A DNA stretch of 62,370 bases from Nanobdellati archaeon (GCA_019429125.1 JAHYJO010000006.1:1-62370), one strand, 5' to 3'. Counted from the stretch's first letter, positions 23,801 to 62,370 are shown. Numbers and translations: made by a program. The notes: generated by a model not told the origin, from the letters alone.

Positions 23801-25973
23801 TTCTACTATAGACCTGTATTATTTCACATTCACAAACACGACAATATTGACAAATGACACAGAATCATATAATATACAGATATATGCAAATGACTCTAAA
23901 TCTCTTTTGAACGCATCAGACAACAGCACAACTTTTAACACGACAAACTACTATCATATAGACCCTAATGCATTGAACTATAACCTATTCAATTTAGGCG
24001 AATCAATGATTGCAACAATTCCAGTCCACACAATAAATAATAACACCATTACAGATTTCAATTTAACTCTTATGCTAAAAAAGTCAGGTGCTGAAAATGC
24101 CACAGTTCTTCTCCCAAACAACAAGACAGATTCTTACACTTATTACATCAATGCGTCAGACCCTACAGGACTTTACACCCTTGATATGAATGTCTCAAAA
24201 GACGGAAACACAGCAAACTTTTCTGGAAATTTCACAGTAAGCAATGTTTACACTCCTAACTTTATACAACCTACATCAAACTACCAGACTCAGCAACCAC
24301 AAGCAAATCTTTATGATTTTGCAAGTCCTTTAATAGAGGTATTTAATGCGCGAGGTGAGCTGGTACAGTCTTGGGGTGTCAATGTCTGGATAACTTGTGC
24401 GCAACCATCAAATATCTCTTTATTTATTAATGGGATTTGGCAACATTATGTAGATTCAGGCACCACAGCATGTCAGATGCCATCTTTTGAAGGACCTTTT
24501 GACATCTTAGCATTCGTACACGACACCTACAACAATTCCGGGACATCAAGCCTACAGATGAACGTGCAAGCATATGGTAGTCCTCCTCCTAGTACAGGTG
24601 GCAGCATATCACCAGGTAGTTCATTTCCTCCTTACACACCTGATTTCATACCTTACTCAAACATCTCAAATTACTCGTCCTACAACGAAAATCTAAATAT
24701 TTTTTCTTTTGAGTTAGGTATGCGCGACATAAACATGTTTCAGGGTGAAAATAGAGAGATTACAATAAATCTTAACAATGTGGGTCGTGATGACCTAAAC
24801 CTTTCTGCATCATACGAATCCAGATGCTGTTCTATTGACTTGAACGAGACCTATTTTGTAAAATCAGGTAACAATCTCGCAATATCTTTGGTAGTATCAT
24901 CAATGCTATCTGAAGAGCCCGGCACATATATTATGAAAATAAAGATTTCAAACGGTGATAAACTACAAGAACAGAATCTAAATATCCGATTAGACAAAAA
25001 TCAATTAATCAGTGATTTTGAATACATTAAAAATGATTTTAAGAGAATTAAGAACATTTTAATTGATTTGAATAGATTCGGAATTGATGTAGGACCTTAT
25101 ATGGAATTATTTGGATATTCAGAAACACTTATGTTAGCAACACAACAATCAATAATGTCAAATGATCTACAATCTTTTGACGCTCAGATTGTACAATTAT
25201 CTGCGTTATTAAATTCTCTAAATATGAATCTGACCGAAAAAGAAAATATAATATGGGTTATCAAGAACAGATATAACCTCGCAGGTCTTTTAATATCATT
25301 AATCCTATTTGTGTTTGCTCTTAAATATTATTTATTCCCTTTAATATTATTGAGCATTGAATATAAACAGTTAAAATCAAAAGAGTTCAACCTTGCAGCT
25401 GAAGAGAAATCAACCGAAAAGGAATATTTTACTCGTGTAATTGATAAGTCTACATTCAACAACATATTGACTAAAAAGCATGAACAATTGACAAATATAA
25501 GGACTCGTATGGTTCATATCCGAAAATCAATAAAACTATTGATGCATGGTCATAATGTCCCTATAGAATATTTAAATGAAACGCATAATACTGGAAAAAA
25601 ATCAAAAAATAAGTCAAAATCTATATTTGGTGCGAAACCAATAAAACTTAAGTCATTTATGGGTTTTACCAATCCTTTATCGTATCTGTCTCTCCGAAAA
25701 GAAGAAACATCCCCTACCTCAAATCAAAAAACACGTACACCCATAAATTTAGCTGAAAAGACACCTATGTATCCCAAAGGACAGAATTTTTCATCATCTC
25801 AGACTTCAACCCCTGTTATGTCTAAGACTGGAAAAAAATTATCAAAGATTGGGAAAAACAAGAATCTAGGTGATGAAATGCGCGAGATATATGGTGGCAA
25901 TCTGAAGAAAGAAGAATCAAAAGAATCATTCAATGACATAAAGAAAAAGATAAACAATATATTTGATGATTGA
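20805..25973 (+). CDS. Large (1722 aa) cell-surface glycoprotein paralogous to the C-terminal part of the 2857-aa protein, with an internal ConA-like/DUF1080-like domain
   Basis: Signal peptide; Ig-like repeats; shared NVSKDGN, CC-containing domain, coiled coil, TM and EEK.TEKEYFTRVIDK.TFN tail; GKVGIYSS..FFDNFKV motif. Confidence 0.9.
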   Translation: MSRSVLLFALSIVLSLSFVLYSPTISPVIEATSPNLTVKTYTGLPYMNINQSDRFHVAFSTSYISNKNVTIYISPNNQTSTNNKPYFFIDNNSIDESCHNCDNCWLNSKTINYLDGNESLSVVNITYTLNNPSIGTVVNIYFDATPINPQAILYTNWTGRIDTDTYSTQNPFTIRPPYLTINDLYAQSRTVYLGDNLTLAGFMINNSDSPDYTGDAYNITATADNTTTSLEIISNKTIDVTDILHPAENQFIPPSNWTINAKSLGQSNISITAKDQTGAYNDTINVTINVVNLTVTPGILEENPIQGEPITIIANITDNASKLFPPDIDLTYANLTYLALNETSGNLELYESQACLTESFELNETLSGTDYTVLTCKVYIPERSGLYNLTISVTDQYFSYNGTETILKSKTTTNTSNFTVSFGKLNLTKTFAMMLAVNETFDNPQGFWQYGEDKNPLWQIDSGIMMYLNSPNSSSNVLNLIDALPESTDNYIEVNIYIPPNYNPQINTPVGIVFRNTLDKYYTFGFNGVIEGDNYSFTIIKYETKGTVLKSQIITSGNYYNPNFIGNISKYSIYIIGNEFIGFINDLEVVRGVDEDPIEYGKVGIYSSYINFFDNFKVYNILDPKDALLLNQTFKIQSFAEVEDGDLWGPTNYTISKSNSKISNQSAMGFQNASNLTLGSWQIINWGEFDTDILGYTNFTIEITSSKGTTATQHINTTIVPLIAYIGESVINYSHPNINYINVTGFGPSLNGPNGMFSVSIKPEYSETEYTVTNFTFDSTLSDITNNNYVYSNNYTSTYLSGNYDLDISMRNQYNKNISNTTESFFVNYGYLSIIILANPGAITWGDSAMQSVDVYAYGGDVRNITLNMTSLTPNYLDLYLGEISNRTEMAILNNQFKTYTWNISAAYSAGYANLSVSGNATYGGNDTTNKYNINITSGVDTEAPKILNVSLKYDIVNLKENMTIYAKITDDYGVHTAVTQIFYPNLSGYSENYTMTFDSTIDLYYFTFTNTTILTNDTESYNIQIYANDSKSLLNASDNSTTFNTTNYYHIDPNALNYNLFNLGESMIATIPVHTINNNTITDFNLTLMLKKSGAENATVLLPNNKTDSYTYYINASDPTGLYTLDMNVSKDGNTANFSGNFTVSNVYTPNFIQPTSNYQTQQPQANLYDFASPLIEVFNARGELVQSWGVNVWITCAQPSNISLFINGIWQHYVDSGTTACQMPSFEGPFDILAFVHDTYNNSGTSSLQMNVQAYGSPPPSTGGSISPGSSFPPYTPDFIPYSNISNYSSYNENLNIFSFELGMRDINMFQGENREITINLNNVGRDDLNLSASYESRCCSIDLNETYFVKSGNNLAISLVVSSMLSEEPGTYIMKIKISNGDKLQEQNLNIRLDKNQLISDFEYIKNDFKRIKNILIDLNRFGIDVGPYMELFGYSETLMLATQQSIMSNDLQSFDAQIVQLSALLNSLNMNLTEKENIIWVIKNRYNLAGLLISLILFVFALKYYLFPLILLSIEYKQLKSKEFNLAAEEKSTEKEYFTRVIDKSTFNNILTKKHEQLTNIRTRMVHIRKSIKLLMHGHNVPIEYLNETHNTGKKSKNKSKSIFGAKPIKLKSFMGFTNPLSYLSLRKEETSPTSNQKTRTPINLAEKTPMYPKGQNFSSSQTSTPVMSKTGKKLSKIGKNKNLGDEMREIYGGNLKKEESKESFNDIKKKINNIFDD

Positions 25974-26027: not shown

Positions 26028-26750
26028 ATGGAAAGAGTCTCGACAGGAATAACAGGTTTTGATGACAAGCTTGAAGGTGGTTATGTGCCAGGTTCAGTTA
26101 TCTTAATCGCAGGAAAAGCAGGAACATGTAAAACTACAGTTTCAGCAAGTTTTATTTATGATGGTGTGCAAAAAAATGAACCAGGGGTATATATAACAAC
26201 TGAAGAGATGGAAAACGAGATAAAGGCAGATCTTATGTCTGTCTTTGGTTGGGATTTTGTAGCTCTTGAACAAAGAGGTATCTTGAATTTCATGTCAATC
26301 AAACCGATATACCCAGACAAAGTCTTAGGTGACTCTGACCTTGCAAAGATAAGCAAGTTCTATACTTATGACATATCAAAAAAGATAATTGCAGCAGTAC
26401 GGGCTGTGGGCGCAAAACGTCTGGTCATAGATTCAATATCTATCTTTGAGATGTTCATAAAAGACAAATATCTGGCAAAGATATCCCTTATGACACTTCT
26501 TGAAGAGTTAAGGAAGACCGGTGTCACAACAATTATAACCGGTGAGATTCCGGAATCAAGTGATGGCTTAAGTCGAAATGAGATTGTAGAATATCTTGCA
26601 GACGGTGTTATAAAACTGGAATTTGTGCCTGTGTCAGAAGATTACAAAAGAACAATAACTATCCGAAAGATGCGAAGGACAAACCATTCAAGTGACATAC
26701 ATCCGTTCGAATTCAATAATACTGGTTTGAGCATTGTAGAAGTCAGATAG
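26028..26750 (+). CDS. Single-domain KaiC/RAD55-like RecA-superfamily ATPase
   Basis: RVSTGITGFD..GG, Walker A GKAGTCKT, YITTEE, RLVIDSI, EYLADGVIKL, IRKMRRTNH. Confidence 0.93.
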   Translation: MERVSTGITGFDDKLEGGYVPGSVILIAGKAGTCKTTVSASFIYDGVQKNEPGVYITTEEMENEIKADLMSVFGWDFVALEQRGILNFMSIKPIYPDKVLGDSDLAKISKFYTYDISKKIIAAVRAVGAKRLVIDSISIFEMFIKDKYLAKISLMTLLEELRKTGVTTIITGEIPESSDGLSRNEIVEYLADGVIKLEFVPVSEDYKRTITIRKMRRTNHSSDIHPFEFNNTGLSIVEVR

Positions 26751-30548: not shown

Positions 30549-32528
30549 GTGTTCTATATGCTTATAGGCGAAGTTTACGGTAAGACAGGCACAAAAAAGT
30601 TCAGGTTCTACGCCTACAAAGAGATAAAAAAACAAGATTTTGTCACCATCAAAGACGAAGAAGGCCACTGGATTCTCTGCAAGGTAGACATAGTCGAAAG
30701 CATATCTGAAGACCGAAAGAACATAAAGAACATGGCAATCTCAGAAGTCATAGGCTACCGTGAAGACGGGATATTAAAAACCCTAAAAAAGCCTATACGC
30801 CCCAATTCTCTAGTATACAGCGCAGACAAGAAAATAATACAGGATACATTAAAGCTTGACAAGGGTGGGCTCTATATTGGTCTTCTTGACTCAAACAAAG
30901 ATGTAGAAGTATATCTTGACCCGAAAGGCCTAGTCACAAAACACGTGACAGTCCTTGCATCGACCGGTGCGGGAAAATCCTATACGGTAGCAGTCATCCT
31001 TGAAGAACTTCTTGAAAAGAAGATACCTATAGTCATCCTTGACCCTCATGGTGAATATATCAGCTTAAGATTTGCAAATGATGAAAAACGAGAACTTGAC
31101 CTGATGGACAATTACCGGATAAAGCCAAAAGCCTATAAGGTTGTAGAGTACAGCCCAGACCCAAGAGTCAACCCCGGTTCAGAACAGCTAACATTCTCTG
31201 ACAAGAACCTAGGGGCTATGGAACTCTCGCAAATCAGTCCTTCAAACACTACAGCGTCCCAGAAAGGTCTTCTTTTTACCGCGATAAGAGAACTTAAAGA
31301 TCGAGGCGACTACACGCTTAAAGACATAATAAACAAGATTGATCAGACTGAAAGTGCAGCTAAATGGAACCTGTTGAGCATGCTTGAACTTGTAAAAGAC
31401 ATAGGCATATTTTCAGACGAACCCACACATATTGATGACATGGTGGTGCCAGGTCAGGCAACCGTAATCAATTTCAGAGGCATCGCTCCAGAAATACAAG
31501 GCATCGTTGCCTATAAGCTTATCCACGACCTTTTCGAGTTGCGCAAAGTAGGACGAGTGCCTCCTCATTTCTTAATTCTTGAAGAGGCGCACAATTTCTG
31601 TCCTGAAAAAGAAGTTATAGTGTCTTCAAAAATAATAAGGACTATTGCATCTGAAGGCCGAAAGTTCGGTCTAGGTCTTTGCGTCATAAGCCAGCGACCA
31701 GCCCGTGTAGACAAAAACATCCTGTCTCAGTGCAACACACAGATTATATTAAAGATTACAAACCCCAACGACCTTAAAGCCGTAAGCTATGCAGAAGGCA
31801 TGACTGAAGGTGTCGAAAAAGAGATAACCAATCTGAATCCCGGAACAGCATTAATTTTAGGTCAAGGTCTGCCGTTGTTTGTAGACATAAGAGTACGGAA
31901 AACAAAACATGGTGGCACAACTGTAAACATAACTGAGCAGCCAAAGACTGGCAAGAAGATACTCTCTTTCAACACAATACCCAAAGCAAACATAGAATCA
32001 CGTCTTGGCGTCCTGAAAGTATTGTATTACCCCTGCTACTACATCGTAGCTGGTGTAAAGACCTATCTTTTCGAAGGCATGCAAGGTAACGTAATCTATA
32101 ATGAAAAAAATATAATAAAACAGCAAGAACTTGATTTCACAGCATCTGAGCTTGAACTCATGAAAGTCCTGACGGGTGAGATGACAACAGATCTTATATT
32201 GGAAAAATCAACTATATCTTTTGGTGAGCTTATAAATGTCCTTGCGACTATGATTGAAAAACATATTGTTAAAAAGAGGACAGATGACCGTGGTATTGAT
32301 TTATATGCCTCTGAAAACTCTTTTGTTATTCACCAATTCTCAGAGAAGCCAACACTTGTTGTGATTGATGGAGACATATTGAAGCCTAAACTGACAGAGG
32401 AACAGATATCCGAAAAGGCGAAAGCGCTATTCCCTAAAGTTGATACTGTCCAGTTGGCATACTATCCGTATTTCATGGGCAAGAATTTCATGATAGATGG
32501 GATAACCGGTCTCAAGAAAGACATTTAA
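30549..32528 (+). CDS. HerA/DUF87-family ATPase with N-terminal HAS barrel and C-terminal extension
   Basis: KHVTVLASTGAGKSY, ILDPHGEY, ILEEAHNF, IASEGRKFG, SQRPA, SQCNTQ. Confidence 0.92.
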   Translation: MFYMLIGEVYGKTGTKKFRFYAYKEIKKQDFVTIKDEEGHWILCKVDIVESISEDRKNIKNMAISEVIGYREDGILKTLKKPIRPNSLVYSADKKIIQDTLKLDKGGLYIGLLDSNKDVEVYLDPKGLVTKHVTVLASTGAGKSYTVAVILEELLEKKIPIVILDPHGEYISLRFANDEKRELDLMDNYRIKPKAYKVVEYSPDPRVNPGSEQLTFSDKNLGAMELSQISPSNTTASQKGLLFTAIRELKDRGDYTLKDIINKIDQTESAAKWNLLSMLELVKDIGIFSDEPTHIDDMVVPGQATVINFRGIAPEIQGIVAYKLIHDLFELRKVGRVPPHFLILEEAHNFCPEKEVIVSSKIIRTIASEGRKFGLGLCVISQRPARVDKNILSQCNTQIILKITNPNDLKAVSYAEGMTEGVEKEITNLNPGTALILGQGLPLFVDIRVRKTKHGGTTVNITEQPKTGKKILSFNTIPKANIESRLGVLKVLYYPCYYIVAGVKTYLFEGMQGNVIYNEKNIIKQQELDFTASELELMKVLTGEMTTDLILEKSTISFGELINVLATMIEKHIVKKRTDDRGIDLYASENSFVIHQFSEKPTLVVIDGDILKPKLTEEQISEKAKALFPKVDTVQLAYYPYFMGKNFMIDGITGLKKDI

Positions 32529-52700: not shown

Positions 52701-52924
52701 TGACACGAGAAGTCATGCGCCAGATACAAGTCATGCGAAAAGAGAAAGGATTGGAAGTTTCAGAAACTGTAAAAGTCTATATATCAGGTGAAGACGCAAC
52801 AATCAAAAAGTATAAAGATGCCATTGCCAAAGAGACAAGTTCAGAAGTTGTAGTTGGCGCATACAAAGGTAAAAATACCGAGACTGTAGAGTTTAAAGGT
52901 AGAAAAGTTGAAGTTGCACTTTAA
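49772..52924 (+). CDS. ileS: Isoleucyl-tRNA synthetase (archaeal/eukaryote type)
   Basis: DGPPYANGLPHAGH, GFDCHGLPIE, WTTTPWTLPAN, GTGIVH.APGHG, YPLCWRC, DQIRGWFY, KMSKS. Confidence 0.97.
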   Translation: MEYNHLAIEKEVRAIWKKNQIVEKITEFKPTDKRKKFYLVDGPPYANGLPHAGHVMTMVFKDIWGKFKYMQGHAVWFQPGFDCHGLPIENKVEKDMGITDKKDIEIIGVEKFINACREFATSNLTEWMDFYKQIGAWKGWVTPYLTYDNNYIESGWWTIKNLYDKGLMIEGKKPIFWCPHCQTAISGYEATDSYKDVTDPAVFIKFPVKGKKDEYLLAWTTTPWTLPANIALVVHPDEKYVKVNIDNEIIILAEKLMDSVLKKKHIKNPEIIKTMKGKDLENLRYKPLLDVPVQNDVDKELNAHKVVLSIPILKKTVASKVQTKKGIDIKIEDKDKFGHLVTMDAGTGIVHCAPGHGADDNKIGEHYNLPILSPVDDAGCLTEGTGFEGQFVKDADKHIVELLKKTNRLFHFENITHSYPLCWRCKSPLVYRLSNQWFFKIDTIKDLMLKGNKKVNWLPEFAGERMENWVADATDWCVSQQRYWGVPIPIWKCKSCGSKKIIGGKKELESEMTNKVKLDDLHKHVVDKVKFKCDCGSEMERIPDIINIWVESGIGPWASLGYPHHDNGLFDKLWPVDLIDESTDQIRGWFYALLFMGHATFGKTQFKTACLNGWTLDEKGVKMSKSIGNVVSAETCEKELGADVLRLYNCYNIAPWDTQKFSLDGAKELFKFMNILANTVNFIDMYKVDTAMVTKKPKSLEIEDRWMLSRLNSMISEVTDDLENFRFHFVGRKIVDLMINDFSRWYMKIAKDKSDGRTLKESTAYTILTVLKATIKMLAPICPFITDKIYLDLFSKTEKKESIHLCDYPTPDKKQIDTSLETSMRIVDNVVEAVASLRQDAGLRLRWPVKSVKISGDDNVKTAVKEFKTLLQSLTNSKEVIFGNMDLDIVIKPNFAVLGPKFGKDAGKVVKSISSQNPEKFKAQLDKGAVVIDGFKIDSSMVKIEEKVKEGLSGQSFDGGSVYLDTERTPALEDESLTREVMRQIQVMRKEKGLEVSETVKVYISGEDATIKKYKDAIAKETSSEVVVGAYKGKNTETVEFKGRKVEVAL

Positions 52925-52929
52925 TTTTT

Positions 52930-53659
52930 TTATTTCAATTTTTTTCTTATTTTTTCTGTATCTTCTCTGGTTATATCCTCAATTATTTGTTGTATAGTAT
53001 CTACAAAATCATCAACAGTTTCCATATTATCTTCAAACTCATCTTTTTCAACAGTCCTGTCTGTATAATATTGCAAATTGATTCTTTGTTTTTTTGCAAC
53101 TTTTATTTCCTTAAACTGGTCTGATGGTACTTGTTTAGCTAAATTTTGTCTTACTTGCTTACGATTTTTTTGATAGGGTCATTATTTGTTGAAATATTTT
53201 TAAGTTATAATTTTCTACATTACTTGCATGCTATCGATTTTACAAAAAAGGAGTAAATATTTTTTAACAAAAATTAACTACACATTTTCAAGCTGTAGCT
53301 ATTGATTTTATAAAAAGTATAATGTATGTAACTTACATCATAATGGTCGTAGCATGCCGATTATTTTTTTGCTAAACAAGTACGTCTGCTGTAATAATAT
53401 CTGAAAATAAATATTCTGCAATTTTCAATGAACAGTTATGATTCTTGCATTCAATTCCCATTTTTAATAACAGTGCAGTTAGTATATGGTACCTTGCATA
53501 ATATGCAACTGTAGATTTCCATTCAGTATCCTCTTTTGATATTGAACGTAAAACAACTAAATCATGTCTAGATTTTTGAAGATACGCATGTGCAAGATTA
53601 TCATTTGGTTCAATAATTCTTGCCCATTTTTTAAGACAGATATCAATAGATTTTTCCAT
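52930..53659 (-). pseudogene. HEPN toxin gene interrupted by a MITE
   Basis: 5' part AYYARYH..MGIECKNHNC..DIITAD; 3' part QFKEIKVAKKQRINLQYY..; rejoins in frame after removing the insertion and one TSD. Confidence 0.88.
53127..53383. mobile_element. 257-bp MITE with 13-bp perfect TIRs and 8-bp TSD
   Basis: GTACTTGTTTAGC (53127-53139) / GCTAAACAAGTAC (53371-53383); flanks GTCTGATG (53119-53126) and GTCTGCTG (53384-53391). Confidence 0.88.
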
Positions 53660-54224
53660 AATTGACCTCCCACAATATATCAACAAATGTTTCTGTATTT
53701 TTTAAGCATATATGATCTTTTACAATTTCAGAAATTAGAGGGTCTTTTTGAAAAAATCCATTTATGAATTCATCCGATTTCATATATATTGCCTGGATAT
53801 TTTTTCCAGTCTCCTTTTCAAATCTTTCAAAATCATATTTTTCATCTGATATTATAAGCAAATCTATATCACTATCTTTTCGTTCTGTACCTTTAGCATA
53901 TGACCCAAAAATAATAACAGTTGAGGTCATATCTAAATATTTTATAAGAGTTGATATAATTCTCTTGTTTAAAATTGCCATGCGCATCGTATTCTCAGCA
54001 TTGATTACTTTTAATTTGGTGAGCTGGTTCTTGGAATTAAGAAAATATATTTTCTGTCGTCCTGAAATTTTTGAATCCAATAACCTTTCATTTTCCATAA
54101 CTTTTAATGTTTCGGACACAGTCTGTCTGTTTATACTGGTAACTATTGCTATTTCTCTCACATACATTTTAATGCTATAGTCTGGGAGGAATGCTTGAAG
54201 TATTGTGTTAACATTGTCTGACAT
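53643..54224 (-). CDS. wHTH + minimal nucleotidyltransferase (MNT) antitoxin
   Basis: MYVREIA..INRQTVSETL (wHTH); IFGSYAKG..SDIDLLII; overlaps the HEPN start. Confidence 0.9.
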   Translation of the reverse strand: MSDNVNTILQAFLPDYSIKMYVREIAIVTSINRQTVSETLKVMENERLLDSKISGRQKIYFLNSKNQLTKLKVINAENTMRMAILNKRIISTLIKYLDMTSTVIIFGSYAKGTERKDSDIDLLIISDEKYDFERFEKETGKNIQAIYMKSDEFINGFFQKDPLISEIVKDHICLKNTETFVDILWEVNYGKIY

Positions 54225-54298
54225 ATGTCACTATTTACTGACATATATTTTTATATCTTTTGTCCAATTAAGTTGACATAGGTCAGCATTTACTGACA
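54219..54298. promoter_or_regulatory. Operator-like palindromes over the MNT start, within a 25-bp imperfect direct repeat
   Basis: TGACATATGTCActatttactgaca (54219-54243) and TGACATAGGTCAgcatttactgaca (54274-54298). Confidence 0.7.
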
Positions 54299-54343
54299 AA
54301 GATAATCATAAATTAAAAAAAGTAAGAATGAATAAAAAAGTTT

Positions 54344-55021
54344 TTATTTCAAAAACACACCAGTGATTCCTTCCATGTTCTGTGATTGCGCATCCTCAAG
54401 TGTTGCATCACCTACGAATATGTTTGCGTCATTGCCACCAATTCTGAATCTTTCAGTATCATTGTCATAGACAGTGTCTACATAGATACCTGGTTTATAT
54501 TCATTGGAGAAATCATATTGTTTGAAATTCTGATATGTTGAACCCCAGATTATGTTTATAGGATTTGCTAACATATTACGAAAATCTTCATCCACAAATA
54601 CATTTATTTCCATAATGTCATCTTTAATTGTAGGGACTATGTATGCTTCTGGTATTTCATTTTTTGAATCCATGTTAGGTGTGATACGCAATAGTACAAA
54701 TGTTTCATTTTCTTCAGTTTGGAATATTACTTCATTTAAAAACATATGTCCTTTTAAGATACCCATATGTTCAAACTTGACTTTGTAAAGACCATCATTG
54801 TATTGCATGCTTGCAGCATTGTCTTCATATCCGTCGCCGTCAGTGACTTCACTGACATTTATTGATGGATTGTAAGTTTCTGTGTTATTATCATTTGTGT
54901 GAAACGAAAGGCCCATAATAATCAGTATAACTATTATCAGACCTATAATTATATGTTTTTTATTCATATTCTGAATATATTTTTTAGTATCCATAATAAT
55001 CAACTTTATCTCTGTGGCCAT
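54344..55021 (-). CDS. Membrane-anchored extracellular hypothetical protein
   Basis: KKHIIIGLIIVILIIMGL anchor followed by an acidic beta-rich domain; start uncertain. Confidence 0.65.
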   Translation of the reverse strand: MATEIKLIIMDTKKYIQNMNKKHIIIGLIIVILIIMGLSFHTNDNNTETYNPSINVSEVTDGDGYEDNAASMQYNDGLYKVKFEHMGILKGHMFLNEVIFQTEENETFVLLRITPNMDSKNEIPEAYIVPTIKDDIMEINVFVDEDFRNMLANPINIIWGSTYQNFKQYDFSNEYKPGIYVDTVYDNDTERFRIGGNDANIFVGDATLEDAQSQNMEGITGVFLK

Positions 55022-57651
55022 GCAGACATTTTATCTACATGGTACGAAACACCTTCATAAATCATACCACTTGCGAAAATAAGTACAGGTACAACAACAC
55101 CTGATGCATAAAACGTTAATCCTGTAATAATTGTATCTGCTACGGCAAGTGTTATCATTGTTGTACCTTTTAAAGTTCCACTAAGAACATCAACACTATT
55201 AAAGCAATAATTTGTACCCTCAAAAGTTTTATCCAATTCTACAGATACAGTCAATGAATCTATATTATCTTTTGTTTTCATAGCCCATGGATTATAAAAT
55301 ACTGAAGGTCTTTCGGTCAATTGAACACATTTTTTAATACCATTACCTTCTGCATCCATATATAATGGTATAATATTAAGAGTGGTTGTAAGTCCATTAT
55401 TATAATCCAACGCATTCTGTGCCTGTATATTAAATTCTTCTGTCTTAACTTCTTCTTGTGTATCTAGGCGATAATATGTTTCAGCACCTTCAATTTCTAC
55501 CGTATTTGACCAACCAGCATATTCATTACCCTCCGGTCTGTAGTTTGTACTAATTCCATTTCGCACATCAATAGTTCTTATGATTGGGTTGTCAGTATAA
55601 ATTGATTCGTCTGTATCACTTCTAGCATATGCCCCCTGGCATTTTGATGATAATGGTGGATTAATCCCTGTCTCAACAAAACATATATTATTATCTGTTT
55701 CTTTTACATCAAAAGTCGCACTATCTCGATCATATTGGAATTCACCAATGATTTCAATTTCATGTCCCATTACTGTAATAGTTTCGGGATTTTTCTCTGT
55801 TATCTCAGAATAAAGAACTTGTAAAAATCCGAGGGGTGTTGTATATAAAAACCCTCTTTTTAATACTCCACCAGTATTGTGTATTGTTGCACTTGTAACA
55901 TATTCATCATATGTGTTACAATCACTCTCAGCAGACCATTCATAGTATCCTATATCATAAGTTCCAATTGGATCTTCAACTTTTCGTCCACAACAGACAG
56001 CTTGTTCACTTTTACATTCAGTATAATAACAACCAATTTGTTCATGTTTTACAATGACTTTTTCAGTCTTACATGGACTGACTAAGAAAAATCGTTTTGG
56101 ATATTGAAATGATTCTCTTTTCAAAGCTATATAATAATAATTTAGTGTATCTGCAAGTTTTTCAGTCTGGACTGCATAATAATTTTTTTTATAGCCTAGA
56201 GAATTTATTCCAATTGGATTATATTTTTCATTTGAGTTGTCTATATAAGCTGCCATAACTCCTAGTCCTGTAAAATATGAACAGGCAACAATGCCTAATG
56301 ATATTTTTTTGACAAGTATCGCACAAGTACCGAGTCCATTTATTCCATCAGCAGCTATATCATTGGGTATTGCGGGACTTAAAATATCAAGTGTTCCTAA
56401 CTGCATGACAGGGTCATTATACATTTTTGTATTAAAGAAAAATTGTGTAAATTCCTTTGTCTGTTGTAATATACTTTCTCGTTGTGCTTTAGGCATATGT
56501 TGTACAATATCATTACCTTTGGTAATTACAGTATTTATTTCTTTATTGGTCAATGATGCACCACCATCACCAATTAAATTAGAATATGTATTCCATTTTA
56601 TTATTTTTTGTAAAGGTGTTATGCTTTTTGAGACTGTACTTCCTGTAGTTACATAATGTATTAAATTTAATTGATGCAATGCAATATCATCAAGTTCTTT
56701 AGGCTTAATATTATGTCCCATTTTAGTTACTAATTCTTCTTGTAATTCAAATCTTAATTTTGCAAATGTTGTTTTTCCAGCAGTTGTTTGTATTGCTTCA
56801 AATGTTTTAATCGTTGTAATCTTTGCGACATCTTCAACAATATCTTCAGCAGCTTGTAGTGTTAGTCCTTCTACATCAACTAATCTTTTTGTAATCTTTA
56901 ATTCTTTTGTGATATACTTATCACTTATGTCAAATATGTTCTTGAATGCTAGTAATCCTGCTTGTTTATTTCGGAATGTTTTTAAAGTAAAAATTCCAAC
57001 TGTTTTTGCAATATTGTCATCTAGAGTTTTATATAAACTTTTTGCAATTGATATTTGTGGTACTAATTTTGTAGCTCTATCTCCTATGCTTACAACACCT
57101 TTTGATATACCTTTACCAATACCTTTACCTACAACTGGAACAACATTGAAAACTCCACCAACAATGGCTCCAGCCCAGCTGAAATCTTCAATTCTAACTT
57201 GCCAGTCTGCAGCTTGATCTTCTGGGAATGCTTCATAATAAACAATACAATTTGGGTCGCCCATACCCGTAATCCATCCTGCAGGGTCACTTTCATCATA
57301 CTCTGGATTTTTTGTCAACTCAAATCCTTGGACTTCACAATTATAATTTTCACCACTACCATAACATGCAGCAACTTTTGTCCCGAACAATTTCTGTGGT
57401 GGACATAATTCAGTTACATCAATACCTGCATGGTGCATACCTGTGCAGTTGAGTGCATAAGCTAAAGCCTGTATAGAATTAACAGAATTAGTATCACAAC
57501 CCGATGTCAGCTTTGGAAACATAAAATTATTAAGCGCATTAAACAATGGCTGACCAATATCTGATGTCACAAACATGATACCTGCGCCTAAGATAACAAG
57601 ACCTATAATTAAGTTAGCGACCAATAGTAACATACCTTTTTTATTTCTCAT
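55006..57651 (-). CDS. 881-aa class III signal-peptide (pilin-like) protein with internal hydrophobic hairpins
   Basis: MRNKKG|MLLLVANLIIGLVILGAG; Cys-paired domains; three further hydrophobic Gly/Ala-rich segments. Confidence 0.75.
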   Translation of the reverse strand: MRNKKGMLLLVANLIIGLVILGAGIMFVTSDIGQPLFNALNNFMFPKLTSGCDTNSVNSIQALAYALNCTGMHHAGIDVTELCPPQKLFGTKVAACYGSGENYNCEVQGFELTKNPEYDESDPAGWITGMGDPNCIVYYEAFPEDQAADWQVRIEDFSWAGAIVGGVFNVVPVVGKGIGKGISKGVVSIGDRATKLVPQISIAKSLYKTLDDNIAKTVGIFTLKTFRNKQAGLLAFKNIFDISDKYITKELKITKRLVDVEGLTLQAAEDIVEDVAKITTIKTFEAIQTTAGKTTFAKLRFELQEELVTKMGHNIKPKELDDIALHQLNLIHYVTTGSTVSKSITPLQKIIKWNTYSNLIGDGGASLTNKEINTVITKGNDIVQHMPKAQRESILQQTKEFTQFFFNTKMYNDPVMQLGTLDILSPAIPNDIAADGINGLGTCAILVKKISLGIVACSYFTGLGVMAAYIDNSNEKYNPIGINSLGYKKNYYAVQTEKLADTLNYYYIALKRESFQYPKRFFLVSPCKTEKVIVKHEQIGCYYTECKSEQAVCCGRKVEDPIGTYDIGYYEWSAESDCNTYDEYVTSATIHNTGGVLKRGFLYTTPLGFLQVLYSEITEKNPETITVMGHEIEIIGEFQYDRDSATFDVKETDNNICFVETGINPPLSSKCQGAYARSDTDESIYTDNPIIRTIDVRNGISTNYRPEGNEYAGWSNTVEIEGAETYYRLDTQEEVKTEEFNIQAQNALDYNNGLTTTLNIIPLYMDAEGNGIKKCVQLTERPSVFYNPWAMKTKDNIDSLTVSVELDKTFEGTNYCFNSVDVLSGTLKGTTMITLAVADTIITGLTFYASGVVVPVLIFASGMIYEGVSYHVDKMSAWPQR

Positions 57652-57679
57652 GCACTCATCAACTAATTGTATCTCTGAT

Positions 57680-57816
57680 CATATATCATTTATTATGTCT
57701 TATCTTCATATATCATTTATTATGTCTTATCTTCATATATCATTTATTATGTCTTACCTTCATATATCATTTATTATGTCTTATCTTCATATATCATTTA
57801 TTATGTCTTATCTTCA
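57680..57816. repeat. 27-bp tandem repeat, 5 copies (VNTR), overlapping the stop codon of the 395-aa gene
   Basis: CATATATCATTTATTATGTCTTATCTT at 57680, 57707, 57734 (one substitution), 57761 and 57788; no spacers. Confidence 0.95.
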
Positions 57817-58988
57817 ATTACTATTATTATATCATCGGGATCAAGAATAACAGCTAGTCCATAATATCTCTCTTCAAAATAATAGAATGGTTGGATTTCA
57901 TATATATAATCTTTAAATAATTTATGAGATTCACTATTTTCCATACCACTTTGATTAATCATCACTCTATCTTTTATGATATATAGACATTTTGTACCTC
58001 CTGAATTTTTTCTTGTCCATGTTACACTATTGAATTCATCTGGGGCAATATCATCTTCTGCAGCATTTAAAAGATCACATGTGGAGAATTTATAACTGAA
58101 TGTACTTATTAAACTGAACCATTCATATAAATTTGCGTCTACATCTGGTTTAATCCTAAACTTATTAGGGCATGCAAAATAACCATTATAATCAACATTA
58201 TTTGCATAGCCACCCATAAATTTGTCTTCAAAATTGGTTGAACAAGTATCTATGTCTGAAACTATTATTGTTTTCGCATTATCATCACTTTCACCGCTAA
58301 GATCTACAATATTTGGTAGACTGTAATCCAATCCACCCGAATCAGTCTCATCCCGACAGATATTATTATCGTTAAGTCTTCCTTTGCTTTGTGAAAATTT
58401 AGCAATGTTAGAGTTCCCTAATGGGTTATACCAACTGATATCACTTCCACCTATGCAGTAATCCTCTCGTTTATAAAAATACAATGTATTCTGACTTGAT
58501 CCTAATTTTCCCGATACCCAAGTCCATGTAGAACTAAATACACCATTTGCGTTACATGTTGCTTTATCATCCCACCAAAAAACCCAATCAATACGTGTTA
58601 CTGTACCTGTACCACTACTTGAATAATACCCACCTAAACAATCATCAGTCTCTTTTTCACCAAATGTATTCATCGCATCAGTTATATTACTATAAATGTC
58701 TTCATATGTTATTGTTCCAGTATCAAGTTTCTGTTTTAACCAGCACGCTTTTTTACCATTCCATGCAACCTTTGTAGCTAATTGTATATTTTTTATAAAA
58801 GTGTCAGCATCAACAACACCTGCATCTCCCGGACAATAAGCCCCTGGCATTGGAATATTAAAATCTCTCGCCGCATTAGTAACTTTCTTACCTAAAGACC
58901 CGCCAGTCATCATAACTGCAGCAAGAACTATAACAAACACTAGTATAACCTGTATCATTGTTATATTCCCGCGCCGTTTCATAAACAT
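57801..58988 (-). CDS. 395-aa class III signal-peptide (minor pilin/adhesin-like) protein
   Basis: MKRRG|NITMIQVILVFVIVLAAVMM; Cys/Trp-rich globular domain. Confidence 0.78.
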   Translation of the reverse strand: MFMKRRGNITMIQVILVFVIVLAAVMMTGGSLGKKVTNAARDFNIPMPGAYCPGDAGVVDADTFIKNIQLATKVAWNGKKACWLKQKLDTGTITYEDIYSNITDAMNTFGEKETDDCLGGYYSSSGTGTVTRIDWVFWWDDKATCNANGVFSSTWTWVSGKLGSSQNTLYFYKREDYCIGGSDISWYNPLGNSNIAKFSQSKGRLNDNNICRDETDSGGLDYSLPNIVDLSGESDDNAKTIIVSDIDTCSTNFEDKFMGGYANNVDYNGYFACPNKFRIKPDVDANLYEWFSLISTFSYKFSTCDLLNAAEDDIAPDEFNSVTWTRKNSGGTKCLYIIKDRVMINQSGMENSESHKLFKDYIYEIQPFYYFEERYYGLAVILDPDDIIIVIEDKT

Positions 58989-59180
58989 CTAACCTGAAAA
59001 CACATTCTTAATCATCATGGGCACAAAACCGACCCCATAATTTCCGAATTTTCTAGCTGCATAAGTTGCAGCAACAATCAATATTGAAAATGCTAAAAGC
59101 CCCATACATATCTTGATGATAAGTTCAAGGTCCATTGCGCCTTTCCGACTCTTGATAAGATAATATGTAATTTCTAACAT
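58989..59180 (-). CDS. Short class III signal-peptide (pilin-like) protein
   Basis: KSRKG|AMDLELIIKICMGLLAFSILIV. Confidence 0.7.
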   Translation of the reverse strand: MLEITYYLIKSRKGAMDLELIIKICMGLLAFSILIVAATYAARKFGNYGVGFVPMMIKNVFSG

Positions 59181-59198
59181 CTGTTCACCGTTAAAATA

Positions 59199-59702
59199 TT
59201 AAGGACTTGTTGGTCCTGCACATGTCTTTGTGAGTCCTGCCCCACTACCTACAACTTGACAGCATTGATTATCATTACTAGTATCAAGCACCAGCCACCA
59301 TAGTCTACCTTCAGGCCCACTTTTTGTTTTTGGGTCATACTTAAATGCTGCCATTGTGCATTCAACAGGACTACATTTACTGATATCACCTACACATTGT
59401 TCTGATATGCAAGCATGAAGTTCATTAGGTTTTAAAATGTCATATTCAGGATATAAAGTACAATACATCTCATTACCACATTTGTTCTTACAATTTTCAG
59501 TATTGCAGGTACCAACAATACATTCAACACCAGTATCGCTTATGCAAGGGTCAACAAATGATATACAACATTGTCCCTGATTATCATAATCACATACTTG
59601 TTCAGTCTTCATATTCATGAAATTGATAAGCATAAATCCAATTATCATTACAAGAAACAGCGACATTATAACATAAAAGATTGAAAGTCCACTGCGCCTC
59701 AT
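59199..59702 (-). CDS. Cys-rich class III signal-peptide (pilin-like) protein
   Basis: MRRSG|LSIFYVIMSLFLVMIIG; many Cys in the mature domain; start reassigned to the ATG at 59702. Confidence 0.72.
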   Translation of the reverse strand: MRRSGLSIFYVIMSLFLVMIIGFMLINFMNMKTEQVCDYDNQGQCCISFVDPCISDTGVECIVGTCNTENCKNKCGNEMYCTLYPEYDILKPNELHACISEQCVGDISKCSPVECTMAAFKYDPKTKSGPEGRLWWLVLDTSNDNQCCQVVGSGAGLTKTCAGPTSP

Positions 59703-59797
59703 ACTATATTGTTGTATTCTTGCGTATATAACATTTTTGCATCTTTTTTTTGAAAATCTCAAATAAATATATTAATGCTATATACCAAATCATAATC

Positions 59798-59986
59798 ATG
59801 TTCGTCTATCCTTATGTTGAAACGTTAAATAGAGTCCGAAAAGGTCAAGATATAGGGATATCAAAAATTGCAGCATTAGTGCTCGTGTTTGCAGGTATTC
59901 TTGTATTCATTGCAGTCTTATATACTATGATGGCAAAAGGTAAAGGTGTAATAGATATAATAGATCCGTTAGCATACAGTAATTGA
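59798..59986 (+). CDS. Short class III signal-peptide (pilin-like) protein
   Basis: RVRKG|QDIGISKIAALVLVFAGILVFI. Confidence 0.7.
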   Translation: MFVYPYVETLNRVRKGQDIGISKIAALVLVFAGILVFIAVLYTMMAKGKGVIDIIDPLAYSN

Positions 59987-59999
59987 AGGTGTAATAAAT

Positions 60000-60266
60000 A
60001 TGAGAAAAGGAATGACAATCGCAATAACTCTTGTAATGGCAATGCTTGTAGCCTTAGTTGTGGCATTTGTCTTGATATCAATGTTTAGCACATCAATGAA
60101 CAAAGGTGGTGCTGGGTTGACCGGTTCTTTAGATTCTACAACTGATGATGTAACAGGTCTTGCATGCAGTACTCATTGCGCAACTTGCTGTATTACTAAT
60201 GTTAAGTCTTATTGTGAAAATACAGGTAACGGTGCGCCTGCCGGTTGTAAATGTAATAATTGTTAG
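60000..60266 (+). CDS. Mini-pilin-like protein with 8-Cys C-terminal domain
   Basis: MRKG|MTIAITLVMAMLVALVVAFVL; CSTHCATCC..C..CKCNNC. Confidence 0.8.
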   Translation: MRKGMTIAITLVMAMLVALVVAFVLISMFSTSMNKGGAGLTGSLDSTTDDVTGLACSTHCATCCITNVKSYCENTGNGAPAGCKCNNC

Positions 60267-60275
60267 TTGATTTTT

Positions 60276-60521
60276 ATGCGAAAAGCTATGACACAATCAA
60301 TATCTCTTATAACTGTCATAGTGGTAGGTCTTTTTGTTGTAGCAATTCTAATTGTCATGGTCGGCGACAAGATGGGTAAGGCATCTGATGTAATTGGTCA
60401 AAATACAGATATCACAGAAGATAGCCTAGAATGCAAGACTGAATGTTCTGCCTGTTGTGCGACTGGTTATGGTGGTACTATCTGTGCGCGCCAGTTCATA
60501 GCCTGTGATTGTAGTTGTTGA
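60276..60521 (+). CDS. Mini-pilin-like protein with 8-Cys C-terminal domain
   Basis: MRKA|MTQSISLITVIVVGLFVVAIL; CKTECSACC..C..CDCSC. Confidence 0.8.
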   Translation: MRKAMTQSISLITVIVVGLFVVAILIVMVGDKMGKASDVIGQNTDITEDSLECKTECSACCATGYGGTICARQFIACDCSC

Positions 60522-60704
60522 CAGATATTTTAGAATTTATATAATTATTTTTTAATATAGCTCTTATTGATTCTACTACATAGGGTATTTAATTATTGTT
60601 TAGTTACCTCTGTAGGTGGTTCCAAACATATTTAGGGGACTTGTTGTAATATATTAATATAATTGTGCAATCATAAATATTTATAAAGTATTGTCACAAT
60701 AATA

Positions 60705-60716
60705 TGACATATGTCA
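60705..60716. promoter_or_regulatory. Perfect palindrome TGACATATGTCA over the start codon of the second MNT gene
   Basis: Identical in sequence and register to 54219-54230. Confidence 0.7.
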
Positions 60717-61259
60717 CGAATAAATTACAATAATGAAATAATAGGATGCCTCCTAATAAAACCAAATCACATACGAGGGCTTGCAAAAGACTTAAACACC
60801 AATCAGACTACAATATCACGAAAAATCCAGGATCTTTATGAACAAAACATTGTTGATTTTAGATTTGAGGGAAAAAATAAGGTATTTTTCCTAAAAAAGA
60901 CACTTGAAGCCTGTGAATCAGTTTTGATTGTAGAGCGTCATAAGTTAATTGATATATTACAGCTGTATCCGCACTTAAGACGAATTATAGAGATAATAAA
61001 ATCCGATAGAAGAATCAATATGGCTGTAATATTTGGGTCTTATGCAAAACATAGTGCAACAAAAACAAGTGATATTGACCTTTATGTGGATACTGAAGAT
61101 AGAATACTGAAAGAGATATTATCTGATATAGATTCAAAATTAAGCATAAAAATCGGGAAATATGACAAAGCAAATCTTCTCATAAAAGAGATTGAAAAAG
61201 ATCATATAATTATAAAGGGTGTAGATGAATTTTATGAAAAAAACAAATTTTTTGAGTAA
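60711..61259 (+). CDS. wHTH + MNT antitoxin
   Basis: HIRGLAKDL.TNQTTISRKI; IFGSYAK..SDIDLYV; EIEKDHIIIKGVDEF. Confidence 0.9.
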   Translation: MSRINYNNEIIGCLLIKPNHIRGLAKDLNTNQTTISRKIQDLYEQNIVDFRFEGKNKVFFLKKTLEACESVLIVERHKLIDILQLYPHLRRIIEIIKSDRRINMAVIFGSYAKHSATKTSDIDLYVDTEDRILKEILSDIDSKLSIKIGKYDKANLLIKEIEKDHIIIKGVDEFYEKNKFFE

Positions 61260-61707
61260 GTTATTTGATGAAAAAAAGATTCAGTTTGTTACACCTAGTA
61301 AAGACATAAAAAATGCTTATATTCAAAGATCTGAGGAATCATTATCTTCTGCAAAAGTACTATTCAAAATAGGGAATCTCAAAGATTCAGTTGCCTTATC
61401 GTATTATTCTATGTATCATTGTCTTCTTGCTTTATTATTTTGTACGGGTATAAAATGCAAAAATCACACTGCCTCAATACTAATTTTAAAAGAAGTGTTC
61501 GGATTAAATAATGATAGTATTTCAAAAGCGAAAAAAGAGAGAATTGATAAGCAGTATTATGTGGACTTTAATATTACTCAGGCTGAAGTTTATGATACTA
61601 TGTCTATTGCAGAGGATTTCATTACAGAATTACGAGAATTTATAGAAAAATTAAATGCGCTGGATATAAAACAGTATCAAAATATACTACAGCGTATCCT
61701 AATATAG
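61234..61707 (+). CDS. HEPN domain toxin
   Basis: SYYSMYH..LALL..GIKCKNHTASI..AKKERIDKQYY. Confidence 0.88.
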   Translation: MKKTNFLSKLFDEKKIQFVTPSKDIKNAYIQRSEESLSSAKVLFKIGNLKDSVALSYYSMYHCLLALLFCTGIKCKNHTASILILKEVFGLNNDSISKAKKERIDKQYYVDFNITQAEVYDTMSIAEDFITELREFIEKLNALDIKQYQNILQRILI

Positions 61708-61766
61708 TTTTCATCTCACAAAATTATATATAATCTGCGCAATAAAAGAAAGTTACAGTGTTTACA

Positions 61767-62066
61767 ATGGCATTCTCAAAGACACAAAAAAAGGGTGAAA
61801 TGACAATTGAGACAGTCATAATCATAGTCTTATTTCTTGCAATATTAGCAATTATAATATTAGTTGTCAGTTCATTGACAGGTAAAGGTTCAGATTCCAT
61901 GGGGACGACTATTGAGAGTACAGGCAGTGGCGCACTCTGCGAGATAGAATGTATGAAGTGTTGTAGTGGTCAAGTAAATATTAATTGTAATCAGTATATT
62001 ATAGATTCTAATTATGGTTCTTGTTGTGTTGATACAAAAACGGGTGAGGAGGAATATGGTTGTTAA
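61767..62066 (+). CDS. Mini-pilin-like protein with 8-Cys C-terminal domain
   Basis: QKKG|EMTIETVIIIVLFLAILAIII; CEIECMKCC..C..CC..C. Confidence 0.82.
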   Translation: MAFSKTQKKGEMTIETVIIIVLFLAILAIIILVVSSLTGKGSDSMGTTIESTGSGALCEIECMKCCSGQVNINCNQYIIDSNYGSCCVDTKTGEEEYGC

Positions 62067-62077
62067 TCCTAAAAATC

Positions 62078-62197
62078 TCAATATCCTAACAAAAATTTCC
62101 AAATCTAAACAATCTTAATATCCTCAACAATCCCTTTCTTTTCAAGTGTCACAACTATTGACTTTATGATATTCATAAAATTATTATCTTCTTTTAC
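62078..62197 (-). pseudogene. Probable extreme C-terminal remnant of a DUF4143 ATPase
   Basis: SIVVTLEKKGIVEDIKIV*IWKFLL resembles the family's terminal IK.IP.WK.LL motif. Confidence 0.4.
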
Positions 62198-62246
62198 AAT
62201 ATAACATATATCTCTGATTTAATGACATCACAACGTCATTATTTAT

Positions 62247-62370
62247 CTCAAGTTTGGGACTTCCCGGAAAAGACCGCCGAATTTGGGCACTACAGCCAAT
62301 TTCCTAGTTACGAATTAAATTTAAAGAAGGTGATTCAATCTTAAGTTTTTTGAAAATATCTTCAGTTTCT
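62247..62370 (-). mobile_element. Possible right end of an IS (IS1634-like), truncated by the window edge
   Basis: ORF end ETEDIFKKLKIESPSL.., GC-richer tail containing TGTAGTGCC, terminal CTCAAGTTTGGGA loosely resembling the TIR of the 27.2-kb element. Confidence 0.3.

Follow-up and report, generated by a model that had tools for sequence, protein, structure and literature searches.

Candidate pilin-like surface module of DPANN archaea in a cluster of class III signal-type genes without an assembly ATPase

Archaeal pilin genes are often located outside type IV pilus operons, as stated in excerpts of PMC4858521, and excerpts of PMC13705601 describe the ATPase and platform genes of DPANN archaea as adjacent and their pilin genes as scattered. 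DPANN "dark matter" proteins with signal peptides, encoded beside pilus genes, are considered probable pilins in a part of PMC6393860. Since archaeal and DPANN pilin genes are known away from the machinery, a cluster of class III signal-peptide proteins without an assembly ATPase is a known kind of thing. The present analysis concerns such a cluster, located at 55006-62066 of a 62,370-nucleotide stretch (GCA_019429125.1 JAHYJO010000006.1:1-62370; the window), which is the whole of contig C17 of a Nanobdellati archaeon with a DPANN genome of the Aenigmarchaeota type (1.16 Mb, 93% complete). The region holds ten genes, eight of which begin with prepilin-like N-termini and encode products of 62 to 881 amino acids (aa), and the gene of a 225-aa protein adjoins it as the ninth gene of the unit. 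The explanation preferred here, to which somewhat better than even credence is given, is a pilin-like surface module that would be processed and assembled in trans, with the 881-aa protein as its presumably glycan-free recognition head.

Several described systems resemble the locus in part. Epd pili of Methanococcus maripaludis (system 1), in the excerpts of PMC13705601 and PMC4858521, share with it the class III leaders and the grouping, within a single operon, of minor pilin-like proteins that differ widely in size, and share with this genome the further pilin genes away from the ATPase and the split platform gene, the platform protein being divided between two genes at three of the machinery loci found here (C25, C32 and C16). 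Epd-type filaments are said in the same excerpts to be the commonest archaeal type IV filament in DPANN. In contrast to Epd, the nine proteins of the locus have no detectable homology to Epd pilins or to the Pfam and NCBIfam pilin families, and the module was never found beside an ATPase, with no machinery within 10 kb of the 881-family gene in any of 12 related loci (tblastn with own-genome proteins, which very distant ones could escape). To our knowledge, the 881-aa family with its putatively glycan-free hypervariable insert has no Epd counterpart. In bacteria, the type IVa fimU-pilVWXY1E priming complex and GspH-K of the type II secretion system combine a cluster of small pilin-like proteins with one large protein (~1000 aa), are encoded apart from the motor and are thought to be located at the tip and to be adhesive. 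The studied locus likewise encodes several small pilin-like proteins and one large non-standard protein apart from the motor. However, a prepilin leader is present on the 881-aa protein and absent from PilY1, the two sets showed no similarity in sequence or fold, and the host of the locus is an archaeon without an outer membrane. Flp/Tad-type minimal pilins are little more than one hydrophobic helix and carry the G/XXXXEY motif. The 62- and 63-aa proteins of the locus resemble them in having a single helix and ~46-49 aa after cleavage (~49 aa for the 63-aa protein, which has Glu at +5 of the predicted cut), but they lack the G/XXXXEY motif, are archaeal and have no Tad-type genes beside them. 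Finally, the Sulfolobus bindosome, as presented in excerpts of PMC13705601, comprises large class III proteins that bind sugars and are not pilins; their genes lie apart from those of the assembly machinery (BasEF), which serves them in trans, as could be the case here. Unlike the bindosome, no substrate-binding-protein domain or ABC transporter was found by Pfam among the nine proteins or their neighbours, and the small Cys-rich proteins have no counterpart in the bindosome as presented there. No description of the module, of the 881- or 225-aa families, of the small Cys-rich family or of the sequon and cysteine exclusion reported below was found in the literature searched; supplementary tables S4, S5 and S10 of PMC13705601 lay outside the search and could list such genes.

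The eight class III-type genes are arranged four per strand and point away from a gap at 59703-59797 between the innermost start codons, both of which are kept in all three genomes aligned. A sequence-only reading of the window had described four genes on each strand starting from a shared region of about 95 bp, with products of about 62 to 881 aa; all eight open reading frames (ORFs) were indeed present and the gap is exactly 95 bp long. The minus-strand operon begins with the gene of a 167-aa protein (59199-59702; leader MRRSG, 16 Cys), whose ATG at 59702 is the innermost one on this strand. It is followed by the genes of the 63-aa protein (58989-59180; leader ending RKG), the 393-aa protein (57801-58982; leader ending RRG, 10 Cys), the 881-aa protein (55006-57651; leader ending KKG, then hydrophobic) and the 225-aa protein (54344-55021), which overlaps the 881-aa gene by 16 nt and has an N-terminal membrane anchor, no Cys and no class III leader. 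On the plus strand, the 62-aa protein (59798-59986; 16-aa leader ending RKG, no Cys), the 88-aa protein (60000-60266; leader MRKG), the 81-aa protein (60276-60521; leader MRKA) and the 99-aa protein (61767-62066; leader ending KKG, Glu at +1 and +5) are encoded, with 8 Cys in each of the last three.

The FlaFind-type pattern is a short basic leader ending [KR]-[GA] at the cleavage site. In all eight proteins a basic residue was found within two positions before G or A and a hydrophobic helix after it, in line with the earlier description of these N-termini as class III-like, and in six of the eight the hydrophobic stretch follows the G/A directly. A relaxed class III-like filter was passed by 52 of the 1184 non-nested genome ORFs of at least 60 aa (4.4%) and by 8/8 proteins of the locus, which shows that the clustering of leaders is not due to chance. 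The basic-G/A motif is kept in the orthologues from the related genomes G007 and G001, and it is present within the first 20 residues in 57 of the 74 full-length members of the 881-aa family. The protein on record for the 393-aa gene has 385 aa and starts after the basic leader, while a conserved upstream start gives 393 aa with a class III motif; automatic gene calls can therefore hide class III leaders.

Whole-genome profile scans with PF00437 (T2SSE), PF00482 (T2SSF) and PF01478 (Peptidase_A24) gave no match on the window contig, which confirmed that no pilus ATPase, platform or prepilin peptidase gene is present there. T2SSE was detected above the cut-off at six places in the genome and T2SSF at seven, with adjacent pairs on contigs C32, C16, C25 and C14 and weaker ATPase matches on C7 and C22. 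An A24 peptidase of 357 aa is encoded on C15 (27.9 bits against a cut-off of 26.5), and a second candidate of 296 aa on C25 (21.3 bits and a weak Arc_PepC match). The genome thus encodes the machinery on other contigs, as the sequence-only reading had expected, with ATPase and platform genes at four loci and one A24 peptidase or perhaps two. It does not lack a prepilin peptidase, a lack that this reading had named as part of its own refutation. The machines on C32, C16 and C25 adjoin class III genes of their own. Further class III groups without machinery were noticed on C26 (31237-37933), C27 (12036-15246), C12 (56750-57034) and C4, the C26 proteins carrying a QSGLE-type motif at +1 to +5, typical of Epd-like pilins.

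In the congener G007, the same nine genes are found in the same order beside the isoleucyl-tRNA synthetase (IleRS) gene. The order is also kept in G001, where the 393-aa gene is duplicated (403 and 385 aa) and no 99-aa orthologue was seen at the locus. On the scale set by IleRS, which is 91% identical to its G007 counterpart, the 63-aa protein is the most conserved of the set (95%), followed by the 81-aa (91%), 62-aa (84%), 88-aa (83%), 167-aa (80%), 99-aa (70%), 225-aa (66%) and 393-aa (64%) proteins, with the 881-aa protein at only 42%. Because the order is kept while identities run from 95% to 42%, the locus is a stable unit with a very uneven clock and no cassette array. The divergence of the 881-aa protein is both fast and mosaic: in comparison with the homologue P0004, the middle third is 17% identical and the N-terminal domain 83%. 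The role in host recognition proposed earlier is compatible with such a pattern.

A profile search of 1.84 billion representatives assigned 588 clusters to the 881-aa family at E<=1e-3, 435 at <=1e-10 and 112 at <=1e-30. The family is present in 30 of the 42 genomes of the phylum (7 of the 10 high-quality ones), and the few named members come from Woesearchaeota, Nanoarchaeota and Aenigmatarchaeota. No Pfam domain was found in any of 36 sampled members. Of 17 DPANN loci from other lineages with an 881-family gene, 13 also hold a gene of the 225-aa family (phmmer), and in 12 the two genes are directly adjacent, on either strand; the 225-aa protein matches no Pfam or NCBIfam family, and its family profile gave no match to solved structures at E<=1. 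Of the 12 loci mapped, nine have small class III ORFs (<=140 aa, at least 4 Cys) in the neighbourhood of the large gene, several of these ORFs being weakly related to the 88- and 99-aa proteins. The 88-aa protein itself has six homologues, 71-85% identical; the 81-aa protein is its paralogue (38% identity, E 1e-11), and the 99-aa protein is the third member of this small Cys-rich family. Judged by homology and gene neighbourhood, the locus represents, in its Aenigmarchaeota-type form, a module of genes conserved across the DPANN archaea.

Seven proteins, the query's own included, make up the narrow 393-aa family at E<=1e-3. It was considered as a homologue of the ~330-aa proteins encoded at the same position in other DPANN loci, but the profile-profile match covered the N-terminal helix only (probability 52%) and homology was not demonstrated. 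In the ESM Atlas, the 393- and 881-aa proteins gave only unnamed DPANN clusters below 0.9. Two observations on the 881-aa family were made in passing. A 9139-base record labelled Campylobacterales bacterium (L037) encodes a full-length, 40%-identical homologue, and this contig is probably mis-binned archaeal DNA. In another relative (G010:C6; L029 and L030), two 881-family genes with identical N-termini lie ~14 kb apart, each followed by a 337-359-aa gene instead of the 225-family gene.

In the 881-aa protein, the leader and its helix precede a Cys-rich N-domain (~36-150), which a Gly-rich helix of moderate hydrophobicity (154-175) separates from the middle third (178-436), helical throughout. 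Another hydrophobic helix (450-470) leads to a C-domain rich in Cys and beta structure (~478-560), and a helical hairpin (822-876) forms the C-terminus. Beside the N-terminal helix, four more moderately hydrophobic helices are present. An AlphaFold2 model built with a 76-sequence alignment reached a pLDDT (predicted local distance difference test score) of 64 and a pTM (predicted template modelling score) of 0.63, with confident stretches at ~50-150, 240-330, 450-545 and 795-820, while a model built with 14 sequences (pLDDT 39.5) was unusable. A Foldseek comparison of the whole-chain model with the PDB gave nothing at E<=1e-3 (best 0.25), VIA-align over 48,161 chains returned only generic helical-hairpin matches to residues 819-881 with Z below 8, and the profile of the family found nothing below E 0.7 among the sequences of solved structures.

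The strongest signal in the 881-aa family was obtained from motif counts in 76 aligned members. In the middle third, the sequon N-x-S/T was observed once against 92 expected, and 75 of the 76 sequences have none there, whereas six control motifs, including the reversed sequon, occurred at 0.83-1.11 of expectation. Sequons reached 0.18 of expectation in the C-domain and 0.50 in the N-domain. Cysteine is excluded in a similar way: 7 of 18,357 residues in the middle third are Cys and 70 of the 76 sequences have none, in comparison with 595 of 19,868 (3.0%) and 546 of 18,830 (2.9%) in the flanking domains. The number of Cys is even in 73 of the 76 N-domains and in 72 of the 76 C-domains, which fits exposure of the protein. 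This family-wide exclusion of sequons and Cys from the middle third is new here. An STT3/AglB gene is present in the genome, and the sequon ratio was 1.03 in presumed cytoplasmic ORFs (n = 213, 1.14% Cys) and 1.65 in ORFs with a hydrophobic segment (n = 263). The eight locus genes together have 4 sequons against 15.3 expected. Ratios of 1.06, 1.79 and 1.20 were obtained for other class III loci of the genome, and the class III proteins of C26 and C27 are enriched (53 observed, 29.6 expected), the opposite of the studied locus. The simplest reading is that the middle third is an exposed, fast-changing helical surface that would need freedom from glycans and stray cysteines.

According to the preferred explanation, the leaders of the eight precursors would be cut by the A24 prepilin peptidase encoded on C15, perhaps also by that on C25. 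The N-terminal hydrophobic helices would then hold the products together or serve their assembly by one of the four FlaI/TadC-type machines on other contigs. A filament or stalk would probably be built from the 8-Cys proteins of 88, 81 and 99 aa and from those of 62 and 63 aa, with the Cys-rich 167- and 393-aa proteins as minor-pilin-like accessory subunits. The 881-aa protein and its constant 225-aa partner would form the working or recognition head, in which two conserved disulfide-rich half-domains may carry the hypervariable Lys-rich helical insert, a recognition surface that would stay bare while the rest of the cell is glycosylated. Little is known of the means by which DPANN archaea recognise other cells and stay attached to them, and hardly any of these archaea can be cultivated. 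The module offers concrete candidates, i.e. a family found in most genomes of the phylum and in hundreds of DPANN clusters, with no annotated domains, a constant partner and pilin-like companions. The exclusion of sequons and Cys from a hypervariable region, set against surface proteins elsewhere in the same organism that are enriched in N-glycosylation sites, is a sharp and testable sign of a functional surface and could guide antibody, binding and structural work.

Several results weigh against the assembly of these proteins into a filament. Pfam, at its cut-offs, places none of the eight in a curated pilin family, its only signal being a sub-threshold GtrII match for the long form of the 62-aa ORF, and in NCBIfam nothing came near the cut-off for any of the eight. 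When the profile of the small Cys-rich proteins was compared with solved structures, a type IV pilin appeared at a non-significant E of 0.26. Pilins are too diverse for a missing family match to exclude pilin identity. In the 62- and 63-aa proteins, 7-9 mixed residues separate the G from the hydrophobic core, and the 167-aa protein has an uncharged S at -2, where its G001 orthologue has KKG. Withdrawal of the 881-aa protein from the membrane into a filament would be made harder by its C-terminal hairpin and by two moderately hydrophobic helices within the chain, and the predicted whole-chain structure of the protein is of middling confidence and resembles no recognisable fold. Moreover, none of the 12 related loci has a machinery match within 10 kb, and no particular machine can be assigned to the module.

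Much of the same evidence would suit a membrane-tethered surface complex without any filament, in which the class III-like N-termini serve as cleaved or uncleaved N-in anchors and the nine proteins form an envelope patch or a short pseudopilus-like raft, perhaps without a dedicated ATPase. The empty neighbourhoods of the 12 related loci, the missing pilin-family matches, the atypical spacing in the two smallest proteins and the additional hydrophobic helices and hairpin of the 881-aa protein all agree with such a complex, and a precedent for class III leaders on non-pilins away from machinery exists in the bindosome, as far as the excerpts of PMC13705601 describe it. However, a basic residue and G/A before the helix are kept beyond the needs of an anchor, in most of the 881-aa family, and two of the small proteins have Glu at +5. 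Despite a size of 1.16 Mb, the genome has retained an A24 peptidase and its four ATPase/platform loci, and the locus encodes neither of the domains, substrate-binding or ABC transporter, by which the bindosome is recognised here. A complex without a filament is considered possible, though on balance unlikely.

The scarcity of Cys and the positive charge of the middle third first led to its interpretation as a cytoplasmic loop. The 881-aa protein would then be a multi-pass membrane protein and the module a transmembrane base or signalling device linking an outer Cys-rich domain to the cell interior. The middle third does lie between the hydrophobic helices 154-175 and 450-470, with an acidic stretch before the first helix and a Lys-rich stretch after it, and its median net charge is +4.5, in comparison with -15 and -7 in the flanks; the near absence of Cys, which abounds on both sides, points the same way. 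This interpretation was weakened by the sequon and variability tests. The loss of sequons is specific and nearly complete, while presumed cytoplasmic ORFs of the same genome are not depleted and contain more than one per cent Cys; the middle third is hypervariable in comparison with the N-domain; and the helices at either end of the middle third, with family medians of 1.56 and 1.05 on the Kyte-Doolittle scale, are no more than marginally hydrophobic. The sequon loss, the genome controls and the hypervariability favour the exposed surface, and the cytoplasmic loop is kept as an improbable rival. A variant of the recognition head was also considered, in which the hypervariable insert between the marginally hydrophobic helices would be a translocation-competent segment, pushed into or across the partner membrane on a stalk of small Cys-rich proteins. 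This proposal is highly speculative; if true, the 881-aa family would be a DPANN device for membrane contact, pores or cytoplasmic bridges with hosts.

Two pairs of MNT-HEPN genes, of the toxin-antitoxin (TA) type, were found at the locus, their presence being indicated by adjacent domain genes and their toxin role predicted. The inner pair (60711-61707, plus strand) is located between the 81- and 99-aa genes and encodes a winged helix-turn-helix (wHTH)-MNT protein of 182 aa (60711-61259; PF18765/PF01909) and a HEPN protein of 160 aa (61225-61707; PF05168, 38 bits). The outer pair (53372-54224, minus strand), between the IleRS gene and the 225-aa gene, encodes a 193-aa wHTH-MNT protein (53643-54224; PF01909, 44 bits) and a 104-aa HEPN-like partner without a Pfam match. 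The interleaving of the cluster with TA modules, as proposed in the sequence-only reading, holds for the inner pair, while the outer one lies just beyond the cluster. The two MNT proteins are 29% identical and the two HEPN proteins 35%. In G007, a HicA/HicB pair (L027, C121:14692-15194) lies between the 84- and 99-aa genes, the spot taken by MNT-HEPN here, and none of the three congeners has a module between the IleRS gene and the 225-aa gene. On account of the low mutual identity, the HicAB pair in G007 and the lack of a module beside IleRS in the congeners, the MNT-HEPN pairs are independent insertions and not part of the system. The locus seems to tolerate or attract TA insertions, and the comparison with G007 suggests that the intergenic spot between the 81/84- and 99-aa genes is a recurrent TA insertion site.

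The original proposal of a variable cassette of pilus subunits and tip cargo held by MNT-HEPN addiction modules could draw on the presence of two of the genome's seven small wHTH-MNT genes within 8.3 kb, on HicAB at the same spot in a congener and on the gene duplication and loss in G001, but it is very improbable, since gene order and content are otherwise equal in G007 and G001, the small proteins are among the slowest-evolving of the set, the two MNT-HEPN pairs, with their low mutual identity, are not a flanking duplication, TA pairs have been lost between species without loss of the locus, and the core families persist throughout DPANN lineages, with no such module at any of the 12 mapped loci, where no search was aimed at TA families. 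Two tempting ideas are thereby corrected: the locus is no shuffling cassette, and the TA pairs, to which a stabilising role had been ascribed, are passengers.

Each of the two wHTH-MNT genes was noticed to have a 12-nt palindrome, TGACATATGTCA, or a near copy of it at its start (54206-54298, where it occurs twice, and 60692-60729). It looks like an autoregulatory operator common to the two MNT proteins despite their 29% identity.

Within the 95-bp gap, two TATA-like AT-rich blocks were identified at ~59725-59731 and ~59767-59774, 23-31 nt from the respective start codons, and they are kept in all three genomes. Their position suggests two back-to-back archaeal promoters with leaderless transcripts, from which the two operons would be driven. 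A 27-nt tandem repeat (57679-57816; 5.1 copies, 98% matches) between the 393- and 881-aa genes duplicates a TATA-like, AT-rich stretch along with the final codons and stop of the 393-aa gene; it ends ~28 nt short of the 881-aa ATG. In G007, ~40 nt separate the two genes (by ORF coordinates). The repeat may have multiplied a promoter, or its copy number may act as a switch for the 881-aa gene, which evolves fast. In a limited check of 52900-62370, no long repeat fit as a template for targeted hypervariation.

The right end of the contig (62067-62370) probably abuts contig C4, an adjacency indicated by synteny only. The prolyl-tRNA synthetase (ProRS) gene at C4:252-1727 (minus strand) is placed as in G001, where ProRS lies between the 85-aa and 330-aa genes. 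A co-directional run in C4 1-15417 encodes a 1351-aa S8 subtilase with PKD/Ig domains and then class III proteins of 334, 118, 86, 252, 1443 and 137 aa; two of the C4 class III proteins belong to the small Cys-rich family, and the start of C4 truncates another class III gene. If joined, C17 and C4 would form a class III supercluster of at least 23 kb. Elsewhere in the window, three large probable surface proteins are encoded at 8380-16953 (2857 aa, Big_13), 18476-20572 (698 aa, cadherin-like/Big_9) and 20805-25973 (1722 aa, no domain), followed by a KaiC-like ATPase at 26028-26750 and, further on, a HerA-type ATPase at 30549-32528.

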